From Candidatus Bathyarchaeia archaeon (GTDB lineage Archaea > Thermoproteota > Bathyarchaeia > Bathyarchaeales > Bathycorpusculaceae), in assembly GCA_050010755.1 (NCBI GenBank), contig JBEKKK010000001.1, forward strand, positions 480,001 through 544,000: a stretch of DNA of 64,000 bases, written 5' to 3'. The notes beneath the pieces are model-generated. The model was not told where the DNA came from and did not search any database. It was given only the letters and a program-made list of their open reading frames with translations. Both the position numbers and the translations under genes were made by a program. Positions 22,413-31,478 of this stretch are shown piece by piece. The first letter of the stretch is position 1. Every line of letters starts with the position of its first letter.

Positions 22413-22539
22413 TGGCGCCGGGGAAGGGACTCGAACCCCTGCGAGCCAAAGGCCCACTGGCTTGCTTGTCCTTGAATCTAGGCCCTCTTTTTCAGATTCG
22501 ATCTCGAGGCCAGCGCGATAACCACTCCGCCACCCCGGC
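22413..22539 (-). tRNA. tRNA-Ser(CGA) with 40-nt intron at 37/38 (22463-22502) and encoded CCA
   Basis: GCCGGGG/CCCCGGC acceptor stem, CTGGC-CT-CGA-G|intron|A-GCCAG, long variable arm GGGCC-TTT-GGCTC, GGTTCGAGTCCC T arm; BHB-like junction. Confidence 0.95.
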
Positions 22540-22652: not shown

Positions 22653-23492
22653 TTATGCCCGAAGTCTTTTCGGTTTCGGTGTGTGCATTAGCGAGGGGAA
22701 CAACCACTGTCTATTTCTTCTTAACTTCACGGCATCCCATTCGTGGAGTATTTTCACAGCTTCGTTCGCCGTTTTTATGGCGTTTTCTTCGCCCTCGCCT
22801 GGTTTGAACTCGTTTACGCAGCGGTTGGCGTAAACTGCGAAGACGGAGCCCGCCCTCAGCCCGTAGAGGCCGGCTATAGTGTACAGCGTGGCCGTTTCCA
22901 TGTCAAAACTCAGCACTCCGGCCTTCTGTAACGTGGGCAGCAGGTTTTCCGTGTTGGATGAGCGTGTTTGGCCGATTGGCCGGTTTTGTCCAGCATAGAA
23001 GTCTGACGTTGTCGCTGTCACGCCGACGTGATATGTGCCGATGTCTAGGCTTTCAGCAGCTTCGATCAAGGCTAACAGGACCTCGTAGTTTGCTGCTGCG
23101 GGATACTCGGGCATGACGTAACAGTTGCTCGTGCAGTCCAGGCGTACGGCGGCGCTGGAAATTATGAGGTCGCCACAGGCAATGTTTTTTTGGATTGCCC
23201 CTGTGCTTCCGACGCGGATGAAAGTGTTCACTCCGATGTTTGAAGATTCGTTCACTGCGATAGCCATGCAGGCGGGACCGATGCCGCTTGACAGGGCCGA
23301 GATGGGCACGCCCTTGTACTTGCCCGTGTAGCTGCGAAATTCACGATGACTGGACACTTCTCTCGCTGAATCCCAGAACTTGGCGATTTTTGGAACACGA
23401 TCAGGATCGCCAGGAACGAGCAGGGTTTCAGCCAAATCACCAGGTCCACAAGCGATGTGGTATTGCTTGCGACCAGACTCTGTCGAGTGCAC
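22653..23492 (-). CDS. udp: Uridine/nucleoside phosphorylase
   Basis: QYHI, PGDPDRV, HREF, SSGIG, IRVGSTG, DMETA. Confidence 0.92.
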   Translation of the reverse strand: MHSTESGRKQYHIACGPGDLAETLLVPGDPDRVPKIAKFWDSAREVSSHREFRSYTGKYKGVPISALSSGIGPACMAIAVNESSNIGVNTFIRVGSTGAIQKNIACGDLIISSAAVRLDCTSNCYVMPEYPAAANYEVLLALIEAAESLDIGTYHVGVTATTSDFYAGQNRPIGQTRSSNTENLLPTLQKAGVLSFDMETATLYTIAGLYGLRAGSVFAVYANRCVNEFKPGEGEENAIKTANEAVKILHEWDAVKLRRNRQWLFPSLMHTPKPKRLRA

Positions 23493-23568
23493 CTCGTCTC
23501 ACCGCAACTAAGATTAAATGCAGGGCATTTAATAATAATGTAGATATTTTGTTTCATTATTTGATTAA

Positions 23569-23910
23569 TTACCAGTCTTCAACTGGAACAAATTTTGTTT
23601 TGTCCTTGTATTTCTCTGGAATCCAATCCAGAAAACCATTTAGAGCATCAAAAAGTGCTTCTTCAACATTATCACGTTGATAAATGCTCATGTAAGGAGT
23701 TCCTTGTTTTGGGTTTTGGATTTGGTAATTTGCTATTCCCATAAATTTGCCTTGTGGCATCACATAAACAACTTCCATTTTTAGTCTAACTGGAAGGTCG
23801 GTAATCTCAAAAGCCCATTCTCCTATTATCTCCTCTATTTCACCTAGTCCTTTATCATCGTAACTCAGCAATACCTTTTCAAGATTAACCTTGCCACTCA
23901 TCAAGTTCAC
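23569..23910 (-). CDS. Hypothetical protein (AT-rich island)
   Basis: 113-aa ORF with AT-rich codons; no recognised motif. Confidence 0.65.
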   Translation of the reverse strand: MNLMSGKVNLEKVLLSYDDKGLGEIEEIIGEWAFEITDLPVRLKMEVVYVMPQGKFMGIANYQIQNPKQGTPYMSIYQRDNVEEALFDALNGFLDWIPEKYKDKTKFVPVEDW

Positions 23911-24033
23911 CTTGTGATATGTTCGAAATTACACTTCTGAATAGCTATAACCCTTTCCGCAAGACCGAAACTCGCTTAGAAGAAATATGTCGAAAGTGCA
24001 GAACAGGAAAAGCAATTAATCCCTGCAAGCCAG

Positions 24034-24825
24034 TCATATAAAAGGAGTTGCTTCTCGCCATCTTTTGTCAAACATTTCTTCTATGGCATATCTTACTTCA
24101 TCTTCCAGTTTCGTTATTGTGGTGTCTCTATTCCCTAAATCCTTCAAACTTGAACCAATCGACCAACAATTACCGTCAGATATTATGTATCTGTCGTGTA
24201 AGTTCTTACCATTGAAGACTCTAACCTCAATTTTTAGGTGTTGGAACTCTTTTGCGAAATCTTTCAGTTCCCTTTTGAAAGTTGCTTCTTGCTCGACCAG
24301 TTGCGTCAACAGAGAAATTGTACACTTCTGCTTGATTTCACTTATCAAATCGAGAATTCTGGTTCCACAATATGGGTCACAGATTTTGGCTGAAGACGCA
24401 ATCTTCGACATCACTATTTCTTGGAAGAGTTTCTTTCCACTATAAACCTTTCCAGATTCAATAAGCCATGTTTTGGCACCAATGCTTTCTCCAAGCATAT
24501 CTTTCACGGTTTTTAAACCCTTAATCTTTAGACTCAGTGATTTCACGTTTCGTTCTTCTTTCTCATTCACAAGTTCTTCGTCCTTAGCATTATGCAGATT
24601 CTGGGGGAAATTTACTTCTTTTCTGCCCAACGCTACAAATAGGTTTTTGACCTCGCTGGTTTTTATTTCAGGTGTCTTGTTCTTATTAGAGCACATATAG
24701 AGTGACAGCAACAGTGCAGTTTTGTCGCTTGGCTTCTCATCAAGAAGCATTTTGTCATGAAATTCGTGGATTATGTACTTGGCGTTTTCGACTTCTTCTT
24801 TAGGGAAATAATGTTCTAGTTCCAC
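24034..24825 (-). CDS. N-terminal wHTH-like + C-terminal PLD-like (HDR) nuclease domain protein
   Basis: ICDPY..., LHDRYIISDG, WSIGSSLKDLG. Confidence 0.7.
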   Translation of the reverse strand: MELEHYFPKEEVENAKYIIHEFHDKMLLDEKPSDKTALLLSLYMCSNKNKTPEIKTSEVKNLFVALGRKEVNFPQNLHNAKDEELVNEKEERNVKSLSLKIKGLKTVKDMLGESIGAKTWLIESGKVYSGKKLFQEIVMSKIASSAKICDPYCGTRILDLISEIKQKCTISLLTQLVEQEATFKRELKDFAKEFQHLKIEVRVFNGKNLHDRYIISDGNCWSIGSSLKDLGNRDTTITKLEDEVRYAIEEMFDKRWREATPFI

Positions 24826-25262
24826 TAGGGTTTCTCCGTTTTCTTGGGGAGATTCTCCAATTCTGTCAAAAATCTTTCAATTTGGAGAGGATTTACTTGA
24901 TGCATACCTCTTTTCAGAGGAATTGCAAATTTATCTTTTCTTAGTTCCATCATTCTGGCCGCAATCTGGTCTTCTGGAATATTCAGGGAGTTGCTTAATT
25001 CCTCGCTACTCATCCCAGCAGATATGTTCTTGTCAAGACGGTTGGCTAGAAACCTTGCTACCAAAGCCAATTGGACTTGTTGCAATTTTTTCGAACTCTT
25101 GTTCTCAACGATTACCATACCATCTTTTGTTACTTTGCAAAAAGGAAGAATTCTTTCAACATAGTTAGCGATCCTTTTTTCATCAAATTTCTCTTCCACT
25201 ATGAACTTCTTCTTCAGTTCTTCCAAGCAATCACAGAAAAATTGTATATTGTATTTCAGCAT
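24825..25262 (-). CDS. Winged-helix protein, translationally coupled to the PLD-like gene
   Basis: MSSEELSNSLNIPEDQIAARMMELRKDKF helix-turn-helix; stop/start share base 24825. Confidence 0.7.
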   Translation of the reverse strand: MLKYNIQFFCDCLEELKKKFIVEEKFDEKRIANYVERILPFCKVTKDGMVIVENKSSKKLQQVQLALVARFLANRLDKNISAGMSSEELSNSLNIPEDQIAARMMELRKDKFAIPLKRGMHQVNPLQIERFLTELENLPKKTEKP

Positions 25263-25374
25263 TTAACTATTATGATAGAGATACAAACCATTCTTGAAGA
25301 ACCTAAAACATAGAAGTCGTATGCCAGCACGGCAACAGAAAAGCTAATCATAATCGTTCACGCTAGGGCTACTC

Positions 25375-25764
25375 ATGGAAATGACAGAAAAAGAAAGATT
25401 AATGCTCAACGAGAAAAGGGACCATATTTGCGAATTGACTAAGAAGATTCTGGACTTAGCACAAAAACCCGAAAATTCGTTGGAAATCAAGAAAAATATG
25501 ACAAACATACTGTCAGATTTGAATGCGATAGCTTCTTACGCAGATTCTAATAAGAGTAGCCTAAACCAGTTTACAATTGCCGTGACTCAGTTATTTCTAG
25601 AGATGGACGAAGAAAGAAGTAGAGAAAGCTGGATAGCTTCTCCGATTGATATTGAGGTTGTTTGCAACTGGGCTAATTCCGTTAGATTCAATTTCACCAA
25701 GAAAAGTTTCAAGTTGATTTTGCCTAAGAATCTCAATCTTGGCATACATTTTCACAATAGATAA
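25375..25764 (+). CDS. Hypothetical helical protein (AT-rich island)
   Basis: 129-aa ORF; no recognised motif. Confidence 0.6.
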   Translation: MEMTEKERLMLNEKRDHICELTKKILDLAQKPENSLEIKKNMTNILSDLNAIASYADSNKSSLNQFTIAVTQLFLEMDEERSRESWIASPIDIEVVCNWANSVRFNFTKKSFKLILPKNLNLGIHFHNR

Positions 25765-25790
25765 GCGATGCAAGAGCAAGAGGTTCAAAA

Positions 25791-25958
25791 ATGGAACCAG
25801 AAGTTCACATCCTCGAGAAGTATTTTCAGGAAGTCTTACTTTGTTTCACCATGACAAACATTCAACTTAAAGGAAAGAAGGAGATTGACCTTCTAGCTGG
25901 ACTTCGAAAATGTAGCTATTCACTGACAACATTTGAAGGTTTGGATAAATCATGTTGA
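25791..25958 (+). pseudogene. Probable truncated PD-(D/E)XK nuclease fragment
   Basis: GAGGT SD; MEPEVHILEKYFQ..FTMTNIQLKGKKEIDLLA, then no (D/E)xK strand before stop at 55 aa. Confidence 0.45.
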
Positions 25959-26284
25959 ACACAATGCAAAAAGAGACTACGTAACTTTTCCATAGCTTTC
26001 ATGGAAATTGGAAAGTGTTCAATTAGCATTATACAAACCTTCGAAAGTTGCCAATGGATAGCTGGGTTTTCGAAATTCCCATGCTTTTTCCATGCGGAAA
26101 ACATGACCATCCGCTGGGAACTTTCGAACTATTGGTGAAATCATATTGAGCACTTACAACAATACGGAAAACGTACTTAAACGTAGAAATACGTACACGA
26201 AAAATGAGAGTATGGTTCAATCAACATGTTTTCGATTGTAATACGAAAATATTATAAGCACAGACAGACTTTATAGAATAGGAA

Positions 26285-26357
26285 GGGCTGGTAGCTCAGA
26301 AGATAGAGCAATCCCGTGCTAAAGGATATGTCGTCGGTGCGAATCCGACCCAGCCCG
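26285..26357 (+). tRNA. Atypical tRNA / tRNA-like RNA, anticodon GCT, short variable arm
   Basis: GGGCTGG/CCAGCCC, GCTC/GAGC, ATCCC/AGGAT, GTCGG/CCGAC stems; TTATAAG box ~30 nt upstream and T-tract downstream. Confidence 0.75.
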
Positions 26358-26965
26358 TCCATTTTACACTAACAAACTAACATGTCCATCGTAATAAGCA
26401 TTTACCTATAAGTAAAGCCGTACCACCGCAACAACCTAACAAACCTGTTACCGCATTAGAGCCTAATTTGCATGTGTGCATACCGTGCGGTACGCTAGAA
26501 ATTTGAAGGTACAAGTTAAAAGAAGCAACATCCCATGACCATGTAGTACACATAATCAGTTGATTAAAAAGGGATTTGTGAATGTTTCCACGGGAACACT
26601 CATGAAGATAGGTGAAAGGCGTGAAGACATATCGAAGTTCGGTATATCCTTTCGATGGCGGAATTTCGCTTTTATATTGGTCTTTAGTTTATGACAATAA
26701 TAGACGACAAAGAAAAAAGGGCATATCCAAGGACATCCTTCATCACAGGGTACCACCATGGATGGTTCGGGATGTCCTTGAGGCAACATTGCCAATATTC
26801 CATAGTTTAAACCAGTATTAAAGCGGTCTTTCAAAATCTGCTATATGCGATAACCTGATAACAATCTTCTGTGAAGCAAATTAGTTTAAACCATGCCGTA
26901 CAGAAATCTTAAATCTGCACTGCAACAGAAGACAAACTAATAGTGGAACGCGGAGACACCGTTTT

Positions 26966-27241
26966 TTGTCGACCGAACAGAGAAGAACCAAGTATGACAT
27001 CTATGCTGACATAGTAGAAATAGTCGCCAAGAAAGGGCTCTGCTCTTTGACAAGGGTCTCCTATGGAGCCAACATGCCCGTAGACCGAACGAAGAAGGAA
27101 CTGAATTTTCTAGTTGCTCACGGCTTCATAAACGAAGTCAACTTCGAAAACTCGAAGAAATACAGAGCAACCAAGTGGGGACTAGAATACCTCGAAACAT
27201 TCAAGCGCATGCGAAAGTTCTTTGCCGCACTGGAAGAATAG
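26966..27241 (+). CDS. Archaeal winged-helix transcriptional regulator
   Basis: RRTKYDIYADI..TRVSYGANM..L..L...GFI..YRATKWG. Confidence 0.85.
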   Translation: MSTEQRRTKYDIYADIVEIVAKKGLCSLTRVSYGANMPVDRTKKELNFLVAHGFINEVNFENSKKYRATKWGLEYLETFKRMRKFFAALEE

Positions 27242-27427
27242 AAGACATCAGCGCTTTTAGCCCGCGCTATTTTCGGTTTTCCAGCTTGAAACTTATGAAC
27301 TTAATTTTCACAATCTTTTTGATTGCGCATCTAGGTTTAGACTTGCTTCGGCACATGCACTTCGATCGACGGAACGCAAAATTTATGATGAACAAACAAC
27401 TACATTGTACAACAAGGCGATTTCTGA

Positions 27428-29605
<2,178 letters not shown>

Positions 29606-29949
29606 GCGCGCGCGATATCTTCAAACCTACAACTAAGAACCATAATGCAAAAAAACTTGGCATACGAGAACCAGGATCGGTCCGATTAGCCTCGCTTTGT
29701 CTCTATTAGCGCGCGCCTCTGGCAAAGCCCATTGCAAAGCCGTCTGTTCCGCGGAATATATCAATAACTGCCGTATTTTCCTCCGTTAAGTATCGGTGTC
29801 TGCTTTTCACGCTTTTCTTTGTGCGCAGGCAGGACATGTAAGTCGCGGTCAGACAGTTTGTAACTACGAAACGTGTTTTCTTCATGTGCGTCGCCTTTTA
29901 AGGGATCCGATGGCTTACCGATTCTCAGCAAAGGAATGAGGTGGTAATA

Positions 29950-30183
29950 ATGGCAAGACATGTCAGAACTAAAACGGGTTGGAGTGAAGGAAGCGAGCAC
30001 AAATTCGCTGGAGGGAATCGACTCCTAGGTTTCATTCACAAGGTCTTAGGATCCCACCAATGCGTGCCCGAATCAGCATATTGCATCACACATGAACGTG
30101 TTGAGGATTTTCGGGAACCCATTGGCTTCGCATCGGATAAAGAAGCTGAAACGCTGTTAAGAAGAGCCCGGATGTTTCAGTGA
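29950..30183 (+). CDS. Possible small hypothetical protein
   Basis: GAGGTGG SD before ATG; TTTTAAG box upstream; no motif. Confidence 0.35.
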   Translation: MARHVRTKTGWSEGSEHKFAGGNRLLGFIHKVLGSHQCVPESAYCITHERVEDFREPIGFASDKEAETLLRRARMFQ

Positions 30184-30254
30184 ATGGATACCAGTCACGA
30201 AATGTGAGTCCCCCTTTTAAAGTGGTGCGTCATGTTCAACGTGGAGGGTGTGAA

Positions 30255-31478
30255 ATGAGCGGTAGAACATCGGTTCCATCGAGGAGCACAATTACACTCA
30301 GCAACGTGAACGGAGACCTAGAGGTCGGACGGCATGCGACCGTGAAGGGATCTTCGTCACCGCCCAAGGTAACGGTTTCAGGCACCGTTCACTGCGAAGG
30401 AGACGATACTTTCGAATGCAGCCTTTCTGCAGAAAGTCTTGAAGCCGAAGACAGTGTAATCGTTCACGGAGACCTCGACATAAGGGACAAGGTTGAAGTT
30501 GAAGACGGCAGCTTGGAAATCAAAGGAAACATGACCGCAACGAAAGCTGACGTTGACAACAGGCTGTGCGTAAATAAGAATCTCACTGTTAAGGAAGTTG
30601 AGGTAGGAGGAAGCTTGAGGGTTGACGGAAACGTGAAGGCTGAGGACGCAGATGTCGGGGGAACGTTTGAAGCCCAAGGCGAAACTGTTGCCGACCGCAT
30701 CGAAGTAGGAGGCAGCCTCAGGATACAGTCCAAAAGTGACATCAACAGCCTAGAAGTAGGCGGCACCGCAAGAGTCGCGGGAGGAAAAATCCGCGAAATA
30801 GACGTGGGAGGAACTTTCGAGTCAATGAGCTCTCTGGAATTTCAAAAAATAGACGTAGGTGGCACGGTGAGACTTGCAGGAAAAAGCAAAGGAGGCGTTA
30901 TAGAAGTCGGAGGTTCCTTCAGAGCCGAAGGCGACTTGGAATTTGAAGAAATCGAAGTAGGCGGCACGGTCGATATAGCAGGTTTGACTCAAGGTCGCCA
31001 CATGGAAGTCGGCGGCAAGATTGACATCCAAGGCTCCCTAAAACTCTCGGAAAGGCTAGAGGTCGGAGGAACAGCAAATGTGAGCGACGAAATCGCAGCG
31101 AGCAACATAGAGATCGGTGGAACAGTGCGCGCACGCAAAATTGCAGCCGAAGAACGCGTGGAAGTAGGCGGTTCAATCACAACCGACGAAGGTGTAACTG
31201 CACGCATCATTGAAATAGGAAAAAGAGGCGAAGTGCACGGGCCCATGAGAGCAGACAAGATCTTTATCGATAGGGATGCCCACGTAGAAAATGTCTACGG
31301 AAAGGAAATCCTCCTCCTGCGAGCTGGCGCAAGCGCGAATAACATCTACGGCCAGAAGATTACAATCGAATCCTACTGCAATGTGTCCGGCGAAGTGCAA
31401 TATACCGACGAATTGAGGATAGGAGAGAATGTGTCGCTTTCAAAGCAGCCACAAAAAGTGGACAAGCTTCCATTTTAG
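30255..31478 (+). CDS. Bactofilin-like / polymer-forming beta-helix repeat protein
   Basis: More than a dozen (I/V/L)(E/D)VGG repeats at 16-18-aa spacing; GGAGG SD before ATG at 30255. Confidence 0.8.
   Translation: MSGRTSVPSRSTITLSNVNGDLEVGRHATVKGSSSPPKVTVSGTVHCEGDDTFECSLSAESLEAEDSVIVHGDLDIRDKVEVEDGSLEIKGNMTATKADVDNRLCVNKNLTVKEVEVGGSLRVDGNVKAEDADVGGTFEAQGETVADRIEVGGSLRIQSKSDINSLEVGGTARVAGGKIREIDVGGTFESMSSLEFQKIDVGGTVRLAGKSKGGVIEVGGSFRAEGDLEFEEIEVGGTVDIAGLTQGRHMEVGGKIDIQGSLKLSERLEVGGTANVSDEIAASNIEIGGTVRARKIAAEERVEVGGSITTDEGVTARIIEIGKRGEVHGPMRADKIFIDRDAHVENVYGKEILLLRAGASANNIYGQKITIESYCNVSGEVQYTDELRIGENVSLSKQPQKVDKLPF

Follow-up and report, generated by a model that had tools for sequence, protein, structure and literature searches.

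A probable virus-type tRNA gene with an arginine-like body and a serine anticodon in a strain-specific insertion of a Candidatus Bathyarchaeia archaeon

Mistranslating tRNAs of bacteria reportedly form conserved families, some of which are accompanied by a dedicated synthetase, and the non-proteinogenic tRNA-Gly of staphylococci carries a T-loop other than TTC. In the passages on tRNA identity of PMC9976931, the long variable arm of class II tRNAs is given as the main determinant for seryl-tRNA synthetase (SerRS), and A20, C35, U/G36 and A/G73 as the arginine identity set. The portion of PMC10264068 that concerns anticodon nucleases proposes that phage tRNAs evade these host enzymes through changes in the anticodon loop. 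The gene presented here lies in a window of 64,000 nucleotides (nt), i.e., the whole stretch of DNA that was analyzed, which covers positions 480,001 to 544,000 of the forward strand of contig JBEKKK010000001.1 in the assembly GCA_050010755.1 of a Candidatus Bathyarchaeia archaeon from peat (2.19 Mb in 8 contigs, 93% complete, 47.7% G+C). It is a 73-nt tRNA gene at window positions 26285-26357, and it is most likely an element-borne, virus-type tRNA with a shifted anticodon and not a new kind of serine tRNA.

ARAGORN calls the gene tRNA-Ser(gct), the sole intron-less tRNA that it reports in the window, and Rfam RF00005 matches it with 54.7 bits (gathering score 29, E-value = 5e-09 over the whole window) in an untruncated alignment that spans model positions 1-71. 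Its minimum free energy (MFE) fold is a cloverleaf of -28.8 kcal/mol (z = -3.71), equaled by none of 200 shuffled sequences. The three methods agree with the first-pass annotation of this DNA, which had described a cloverleaf with a GCT anticodon at this place. Pairing is complete in the acceptor (7/7), D (4/4) and T (5/5) stems and reaches 4/5 in the anticodon stem. U8, A14, G15/C48, G53-C61, T54/A58, U33, A37 and A38 are kept, and the conserved tertiary set is complete except for G18 (here A), U55 (G) and Y32 (G). The D-loop reads AGAAGATA, without GG, and the T-loop TGCGAAT; the variable loop has 5 nt, the acceptor strand is GGGCUGG, the discriminator is G73 (26357) and CCA is not encoded. 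The A18 G19 numbering used here is an assignment, as Infernal aligns the same letters as G18 A19, which makes A20 a U20; we prefer the former because it keeps both G19-C56 and the Arg-type GAUA and because the covariation of AG with G55 recurs in other tRNAs. Upstream, the BRE/TATA-like element GAAAATATTATAAG, already noticed in the first-pass annotation, resembles a CGAAAGCTCTAAAT-type element located at about -50 to -35 of several host tRNA genes (26 upstream regions compared), while the TTTT that follows the gene is possibly an archaeal terminator, a putative role read from its letters.

The A18/G55 exchange is a true paired covariation and an inherited class trait of many virus-encoded tRNAs. 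The exact D-arm of the gene, GCTCAGAAGATAGAGC, is present in six IMG/VR contigs, and in phage contig L009 the only two of 15 tRNAs with a TGC T-loop are also the only two without the GG of the D-loop. A broad viral scan for the D stem GCTC/GAGC together with GGTGCRA matched at least 117 stretches; among the matches listed, 64 of the 69 unique G55 sequences have no GG, nearly all reading AG, and many isoacceptors are represented (Met, Phe, Arg, Thr, Gly and others). Additionally, 80 viral loci, chosen for holding one G55 tRNA, gave 392 unique tRNAs by ARAGORN, 286 of which were parsed, the T55 tRNAs being the unselected neighbors of the G55 ones. T55 is combined with GG in 224 of these 286 tRNAs and occurs without GG in none, G55 is combined with AG in 49 and with GG in 11, and the other two have GG and a different letter at position 55, i.e., a GG-less D-loop appears only alongside G55 (49 vs. 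0). In other genomes of the same archaeal phylum the G55 pattern was matched in 0/400, while a TTC control pattern was matched in 53/60. One whole-word search of the literature on an A18/G55 exchange in tRNAs found nothing relevant. The gene carries the pattern by which the class is defined here (AG for G18 G19, together with T54 G55 C56), and it is carried by a strain-specific insertion of low G+C, though one without a recognized virus or integrase gene. The first-pass annotation had rightly seen that both partners had changed, but it took this as a sign of selection; since the exchange recurs across viral tRNAs, it marks the origin of the gene and not selection on this copy. Four-letter anticodons were assigned by ARAGORN to some G55-type tRNAs of the viral loci L035-L114 and L010 (tggt three times, atgc once, and cgca in L010), possibly representing frameshift-type tRNAs with an 8-nt loop in phage arrays.

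The insertion that carries the tRNA is absent from all four same-genus genomes (4/4), in which the phosphorylase (PNP) gene (22653-23492) adjoins the wHTH gene (26966-27241). Homology with these genomes ends at 23540 and restarts at 26938, the two alignments sharing an 8-bp overlap, and their empty site reads catttaataatagtggaac. G+C content is 0.366-0.398 across 24000-26999, compared with 0.477 genome-wide. A 7,477-nt contig of metagenome run X7, from a strain about 86% identical, joins 23473 to 26938, i.e., without the insertion. Contigs of run X4, which was not flagged as a possible source of the assembly, span both junctions with no differences, and a 630-kb metagenome contig, which may be of the same source as the assembly, is 100% identical across 26025-30414. 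The island is present in eight peat/wetland metagenome runs and the insertion in a single copy in the host genome, and no terminal inverted repeats of it were found. The link to a foreign island suggested by the first-pass annotation therefore holds, the tRNA being located inside this strain-specific, low-G+C segment, which would be a recent acquisition that the host can do without.

The build of the gene points to arginine. When 241 million metagenome records were scanned for its D-arm and T-loop, the matches were the identical self copy plus three unrelated tRNA-Arg genes and nothing else, and the same scan of species-representative genomes gave a single tRNA-Arg, inside a 7-tRNA array; the non-self tRNAs of these scans are Arg(CCT), Arg(TCT), Arg(TCT) and Arg(TCG). 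Among the six viral D-arm matches, the one called as a tRNA by ARAGORN is Arg(tcg), the other five not being called as tRNAs there, so that the other tRNAs combining this D-arm with a TGC T-loop are 5/5 Arg. One of the Arg-tRNA contigs, 20 kb long, encodes thymidylate synthase and dCMP deaminase, as in large phages. The GAUA after A18 corresponds to G19 A20 U20a A21 and is common to the Arg relatives; A20 is found in 24 of 26 viral Arg tRNAs vs. 27 of 258 others. Similarly, the nearest of 14 intron-less host tRNAs is Arg(TCT), with 54/76 aligned columns, and the Lys/Ala-like body proposed in the first-pass annotation gives way to an Arg-like one. All four Arg identity elements are held by the gene (A20, C35, U36 and G73). 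The long variable arm of tRNA-Ser is replaced by a 5-nt loop and the gene should consequently escape SerRS, as the first-pass annotation had also argued; G73 fits tRNA-Ser, but host Arg, Lys and Asp tRNAs have the same discriminator. As the anticodon is GCU, which reads the serine codons AGY, and not NCG/YCU, this cannot be classified as a working tRNA-Arg but only as an Arg-built one. The host owns two tRNA-Arg(UCU) genes of its own and an acquired copy would therefore be redundant. The first (C1:958509-958583(-)) is intron-less, without encoded CCA and with an A6.C67 mismatch, while the second (C1:1147603-1147713(+)), which ARAGORN mislabels as tRNA-Pyl(cta), has an encoded CCA and two introns, one in the D-loop (21/22) and one in the 3' strand of the anticodon stem. 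Both carry AGCATGGATA, and G73 occurs in all host Arg tRNAs.

Beyond the class traits, all oddities of the gene are concentrated in the anticodon arm, namely G32, G34 and the C31.A39 mismatch, whereas the Arg relatives read C32-U33-Y34-C35-U/G36-A37-A38 on a paired stem. Among 56 intron-less tRNAs compared, taken from the host genome and from the fetched phage and metagenome loci, a purine at position 32 is found only in this gene, the other 55 having a pyrimidine, while a 31-39 mismatch is present in five. G32, which the first-pass annotation had not mentioned, is the rarest anomaly of the gene. ViennaRNA leaves C31/A39 unpaired, which results in an anticodon stem of 4 bp and a loop of 9 nt. 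A frameshift-suppressor loop was considered for these 9 nt; ARAGORN calls a normal loop of 7 nt.

Table 1. Features of the tRNA gene, the insertion that carries it and its surroundings, given as window positions.
Feature	Position	Strand	Basis
tRNA gene, 73 nt	26285..26357	+	ARAGORN; Rfam RF00005; cloverleaf MFE
A18 G19 A20 of the tRNA gene	26301-26303	+	sequence
C31.A39 mismatch of the tRNA gene	26315/26323	+	sequence
G32 of the tRNA gene	26316	+	sequence
Anticodon GCT of the tRNA gene	26318-26320	+	sequence, ARAGORN
G55 of the tRNA gene	26339	+	sequence
BRE/TATA-like element GAAAATATTATAAG	26245..26258	+	-40 to -27 from mature 5' end; consensus resemblance
T-tract TTTT	26362..26365	+	sequence; 5 nt past discriminator
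Insertion with the tRNA, 3,397 bp	23541..26937	.	composition, empty sites in relatives, metagenome contig
Left copy of short imperfect flanking direct repeat, TAATAATG	23533..23540	.	8-bp alignment overlap, junction sequences
Right copy of flanking direct repeat, TAATAGTG	26938..26945	.	8-bp alignment overlap, junction sequences
40-bp dispersed repeat, right end of the insertion	26900..26939	+	genome comparison; contig loose ends at 26900, 26939
Native tRNA-Ser(CGA), long variable arm, G73, encoded CCA, 40-nt intron	22416..22539	-	Rfam 46.4 bits, alignment
Island open reading frame (ORF), 113 amino acids (aa)	23569..23910	-	no family found
Island gene, 263 aa, PLD-like domain	24034..24825	-	Pfam PLDc_2, PADLOC PDC-S05, NCBIfam
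Island ORF, 145 aa, overlapping the start of the PLD-like gene	24825..25262	-	no family found
Island ORF, 129 aa	25375..25764	+	no family found
Island ORF, 92 aa; may not be a gene	26556..26834	-	no family found

The explanation towards which we lean is that a tRNA of Arg(UCU) type was acquired from a virus or mobile element, that this copy was redundant in the host, and that its anticodon arm has drifted until little or no decoding was left. A genuine but foreign tRNA gene, with the body of the A18.G55 class and an Arg build, would have arrived on the 3.4-kb low-G+C cassette, inserted between two conserved host genes. Since then, U34 (or C34) would have changed to G, giving GCU, C32 to G, and the 31-39 pair to a C.A mismatch, and the present state would most likely be a drifting relic that decodes poorly or not at all. 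If it were transcribed and charged, arginyl-tRNA synthetase (ArgRS) would be the sole synthetase with a known identity set matched by the gene, and Arg would be inserted at AGC/AGU. BLAST of the tRNA against 60 relatives gave matches in only three of them and no ortholog, the matches being a tRNA-Ile(GAT) at 74% (the best) and two T-arm pieces of 21-23 nt. Viral scans with the anticodon-loop plus T-loop and with the D-loop plus GCT returned only non-tRNA chance or coding matches. The first-pass annotation had made its idea of selection dependent on orthologs, and none turned up in the genomes and contigs covered. A duplicated host tRNA, or a half-copy left at an attachment site, was ruled out by the single BLAST match in the genome and the 71% identity to the nearest host tRNA.

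Several observations weigh against a drifted Arg(UCU)-type tRNA. These searches turned up neither an ancestor nor a sister copy with a UCU anticodon, and for this reason the direction of the anticodon change is inferred and not observed. Outside the parts fixed by the search, the gene resembles the other A18/G55 Arg tRNAs only weakly (49-52 of 73-75 columns), and a viral Gly(gcc) is 74% similar overall vs. 73% for the best viral Arg(tct); the Arg assignment is therefore based on A20/U20a, C35, U36, G73 and the co-occurrence counts, not on a close homology. A20 is present too in some Lys(UUU) tRNAs of the phylum, and the identity determinants of archaeal ArgRS are described as poorly known in the passages on identity of PMC9976931. 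Outside the anticodon arm every stem pair and tertiary position is intact, and the gene still has a plausible promoter and terminator, which is unlike a neutral relic, because such a relic is expected to gather changes elsewhere too. Three independent random changes would all fall in the 17-nt arm with a chance of about (17/73)^3, roughly 1%, and this clustering suggests either that the tRNA shape as a whole is under selection or that the relic is very young. Finally, no long-arm tRNA-Ser(GCU) was found in the 93%-complete assembly, in which tRNAs for Asn, Cys, Phe, Thr-UGU/CGU and Pro-UGG/CGG were likewise not found.

A working mis-sense tRNA comes next, although we consider it unlikely. Transcribed from the archaeal-type promoter and charged with Arg via A20/C35/U36/G73, it would cause low-level AGC/AGU to Arg replacement and be kept by the cassette as a device for stress, conflict or abortive infection, while G32 and C31.A39 would tune decoding down. 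The full Arg identity set is indeed joined to a Ser anticodon (under the identity rules outlined in PMC9976931), but with no orthologs found nothing shows selection keeping GCU, and G32 is almost never seen in working tRNAs (1/56 compared). The intact stems and tertiary contacts outside the anticodon arm, the promoter-like element and the T-tract would suit an active gene, yet the ORFs of the island hold 20 AGY in 742 codons and would be mistranslated too. In two flanking genes compared with their same-genus orthologs, the 104 codon-by-ortholog comparisons at AGY show Ser in 80 cases and Arg in none; genome-wide recoding of AGY was ruled out by the same alignment (2 genes). The tRNA adjoins the PLD-like gene of a candidate defense family, but homologues of the latter (29-38% identity) occur in 3/60 relatives, all three without the tRNA. 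Natural mistranslating tRNA families are known in bacteria, as stated in the part of PMC10404621 devoted to them; no partner synthetase or regulator was recognized in the island. A more specific version is somewhat more doubtful: a mobile cassette would carry an identity-switched tRNA which, expressed from the archaeal promoter, would deliberately put Arg at AGC/AGU in conflict or under stress, e.g., for abortive infection or proteome diversification, with G32 and C31.A39 acting as a throttle.

Equally doubtful is a tRNA-shaped RNA with a non-decoding job, i.e., a decoy or spare against tRNA-directed nucleases, a processing signal for RNase P/tRNase Z on a neighboring transcript (e.g., the upstream hairpin of 190 nt) or, for the element itself, a primer or an attachment site. 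Damage limited to the anticodon arm, with the determinants of the L-shape kept, would be consistent with such a role, as would the very stable hairpin on the same strand. The evasion of anticodon nucleases proposed for phage tRNAs offers a precedent, but the evasion tRNAs described in the relevant portion of PMC10264068 keep their anticodon and this gene does not. Moreover, the island yielded no integrase, no reverse transcriptase and no member of a known family of tRNA-cutting nucleases, and the genome has no second copy or half-copy of the tRNA to mark an attachment site. The hairpin itself (25895-26085) is long and imperfect, with 67-nt arms (-69.8 kcal/mol, z = -7.98, 0/200 shuffles equal it), and is located 200 nt upstream of the tRNA; it is a single copy in the genome and has no Rfam match.

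Concerning serine, three host tRNAs were found, Ser(CGA), Ser(GGA) and Ser(UGA), all with long variable arms (13-16 nt), G73 and introns. Ser(CGA) lies 1 kb left of the insertion and is kept in the same-genus genomes (homology from 22371 onward); the label Ala(cgc) given to it by ARAGORN is a mis-splice. Ser(TGA), at C1:~978745-978877(+), has introns just after position 8 and in the anticodon loop. The host tRNA genes are intron-rich, as is also seen in Arg(CCT) at C1:596648-596774(+), which has a D-loop intron. The "Ser(gct)" reported by ARAGORN at C1:205626 is actually a Leu(TAG) with A73. Ser(GCU) was searched for by ARAGORN with introns, Rfam to E 10, BLAST with the Ser(CGA) and Ser(GGA) genes and T-arm/acceptor scans, none of which revealed it, the BLAST turning up Ser(TGA). 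The normal long-arm gene that the first-pass annotation had asked about was not found in the assembly, a result that says little, because other essential tRNAs were missed as well in this 93%-complete genome with its many tRNA introns. Among the Ser codons of the genome AGC is used most (17.1 per 1000), and the four same-genus relatives, being without the insertion, decode AGY without this gene. That the gene is a true short-arm tRNA-Ser(GCU), charged by SerRS and possibly the AGY decoder of the strain, is very improbable despite its GCU anticodon and G73, the failure to find a canonical gene and the short-arm tRNA-Ser(GCU) that animal mitochondria have according to the section concerned of PMC9976931, given that all three host Ser tRNAs are long-armed, that 4/4 same-genus genomes lack the gene and must decode AGY otherwise, that the commonest Ser codon is a poor fit to a single foreign gene with a mismatched anticodon stem, and that the failed search is uninformative.

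Apart from the tRNA, the proteins of the island were compared with Pfam, PADLOC, PHROGs, NCBIfam, PDB sequences and the ESM Atlas, which yielded only the PLD-like domain and a faint HTH lead. These comparisons recognized no integrase, transposase, reverse transcriptase, virus gene, tRNA nuclease or synthetase in the island. The 263-aa PLD-like protein matches the candidate defense family PDC-S05 (PADLOC, 1.7e-21) and, below the respective cut-offs, Pfam PLDc_2 (9.7e-05) and NCBIfam VPA1262_N_dom (1.8e-13), while the nearest ESM Atlas cluster of the 145-aa ORF consists of archaeal hypothetical proteins. A 5,609-nt contig of run X7 (depth 24), aligned at 24040-25111, carries both the PLD-like and the 145-aa genes at about 85% identity; it stops short of the tRNA region, and therefore represents the two-gene module either elsewhere without the tRNA or in another organism. 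Besides the 40-bp repeat that ends the insertion on the right, the host genome contains 13 other copies of it (87-96% identity) and a weaker one at 25312-25340. Each of the four same-genus genomes has many copies, frequently clustered within a few kb, and they occur upstream of genes; the repeat might be where recombination occurs or where a cassette ends, or might provide a common promoter/operator. At G002:C6:103510-106419, in a same-genus genome, a PLD-like homologue (29% identity) sits among several copies, which hints that the repeat marks variable cassette regions. Further downstream, a KatG-type catalase-peroxidase gene (27428-29605, Pfam peroxidase 1.7e-75, about 60% G+C) forms another strain-specific insertion, the second one here. 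The sequence of 29837 onward follows the wHTH gene within about 110-140 bp in G002 and G004, and past the wHTH gene no downstream match was seen in G001 or within the fetched G003 locus.

Genes of this kind have consequences for annotation. tRNA finders will call the gene tRNA-Ser(GCU), a label that is wrong except for the anticodon and that could hide the absence of a real AGY decoder from an assembly. The A18.G55 exchange, being a clean and frequent covariation of virus-encoded tRNAs, could mark virus-derived tRNA genes. An Arg identity combined with a Ser anticodon also offers a direct way to learn whether cells tolerate, silence or use such genes. If active, the gene would be a natural mistranslator in Archaea, the first one there and the first borne by a mobile element; if a relic, it would indicate that the first changes on a redundant acquired tRNA fall in the anticodon arm.

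Compared with the known systems, neither sequence nor context links the gene to the mitochondrial tRNA-Ser or the staphylococcal tRNA-Gly. The latter serves bacterial cell-wall synthesis, while the animal mitochondrial tRNA-Ser(GCU) likewise combines GCU with the lack of a long arm (as described in part of PMC9976931), but has no D arm and is served by its own SerRS. From the phage tRNAs that evade anticodon nucleases, as far as these are covered in PMC10264068, the gene is set apart by its altered loop (G32), an anticodon unlike every Arg anticodon and the lack of an identified tRNA nuclease. With the tRNAPro-derived mistranslating tRNAs of bacteria, in the account given of them in PMC10404621, it shares identity elements and an anticodon that name different amino acids; unlike those families, it is an orphan that lacks a partner and whose anticodon arm looks impaired. 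The serine anticodon GCU and G73 are shared with canonical archaeal tRNA-Ser, whereas the variable arm (5 nt vs. 13-16 nt in the host Ser tRNAs) and the acceptor (GGGCUGG vs. GCCGGGR) differ. The likeness to the host tRNA-Arg(UCU) extends over the 3' half of the D-loop (GATAGAGCA), the D stem GCTC/GAGC, A37 A38, G73 and the length of the variable loop, but the host tRNA has G18 G19, a TTC T-loop, C32, U34 and a fully paired anticodon stem. The phage-type tRNA-Arg genes, known from a TARA contig, the 20-kb contig with thymidylate synthase and dCMP deaminase, the 7-tRNA array and an IMG/VR contig, have C32, a YCU or UCG anticodon and, where the discriminator is listed, A or T at 73, in contrast to G32, G34, C31.A39 and G73 here, and overall identity is 66-73%. 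Furthermore, the present gene is found on an archaeal chromosome, behind an archaeal-type promoter-like element, and stands alone rather than in an array. Nevertheless, it has the same D-arm, the same T-loop TGCGAAT(CC) and the same short variable loop as the phage Arg(TCT), Arg(CCT) and Arg(TCG) tRNAs, and its A18/G55 covariation is common to 49 viral tRNAs.

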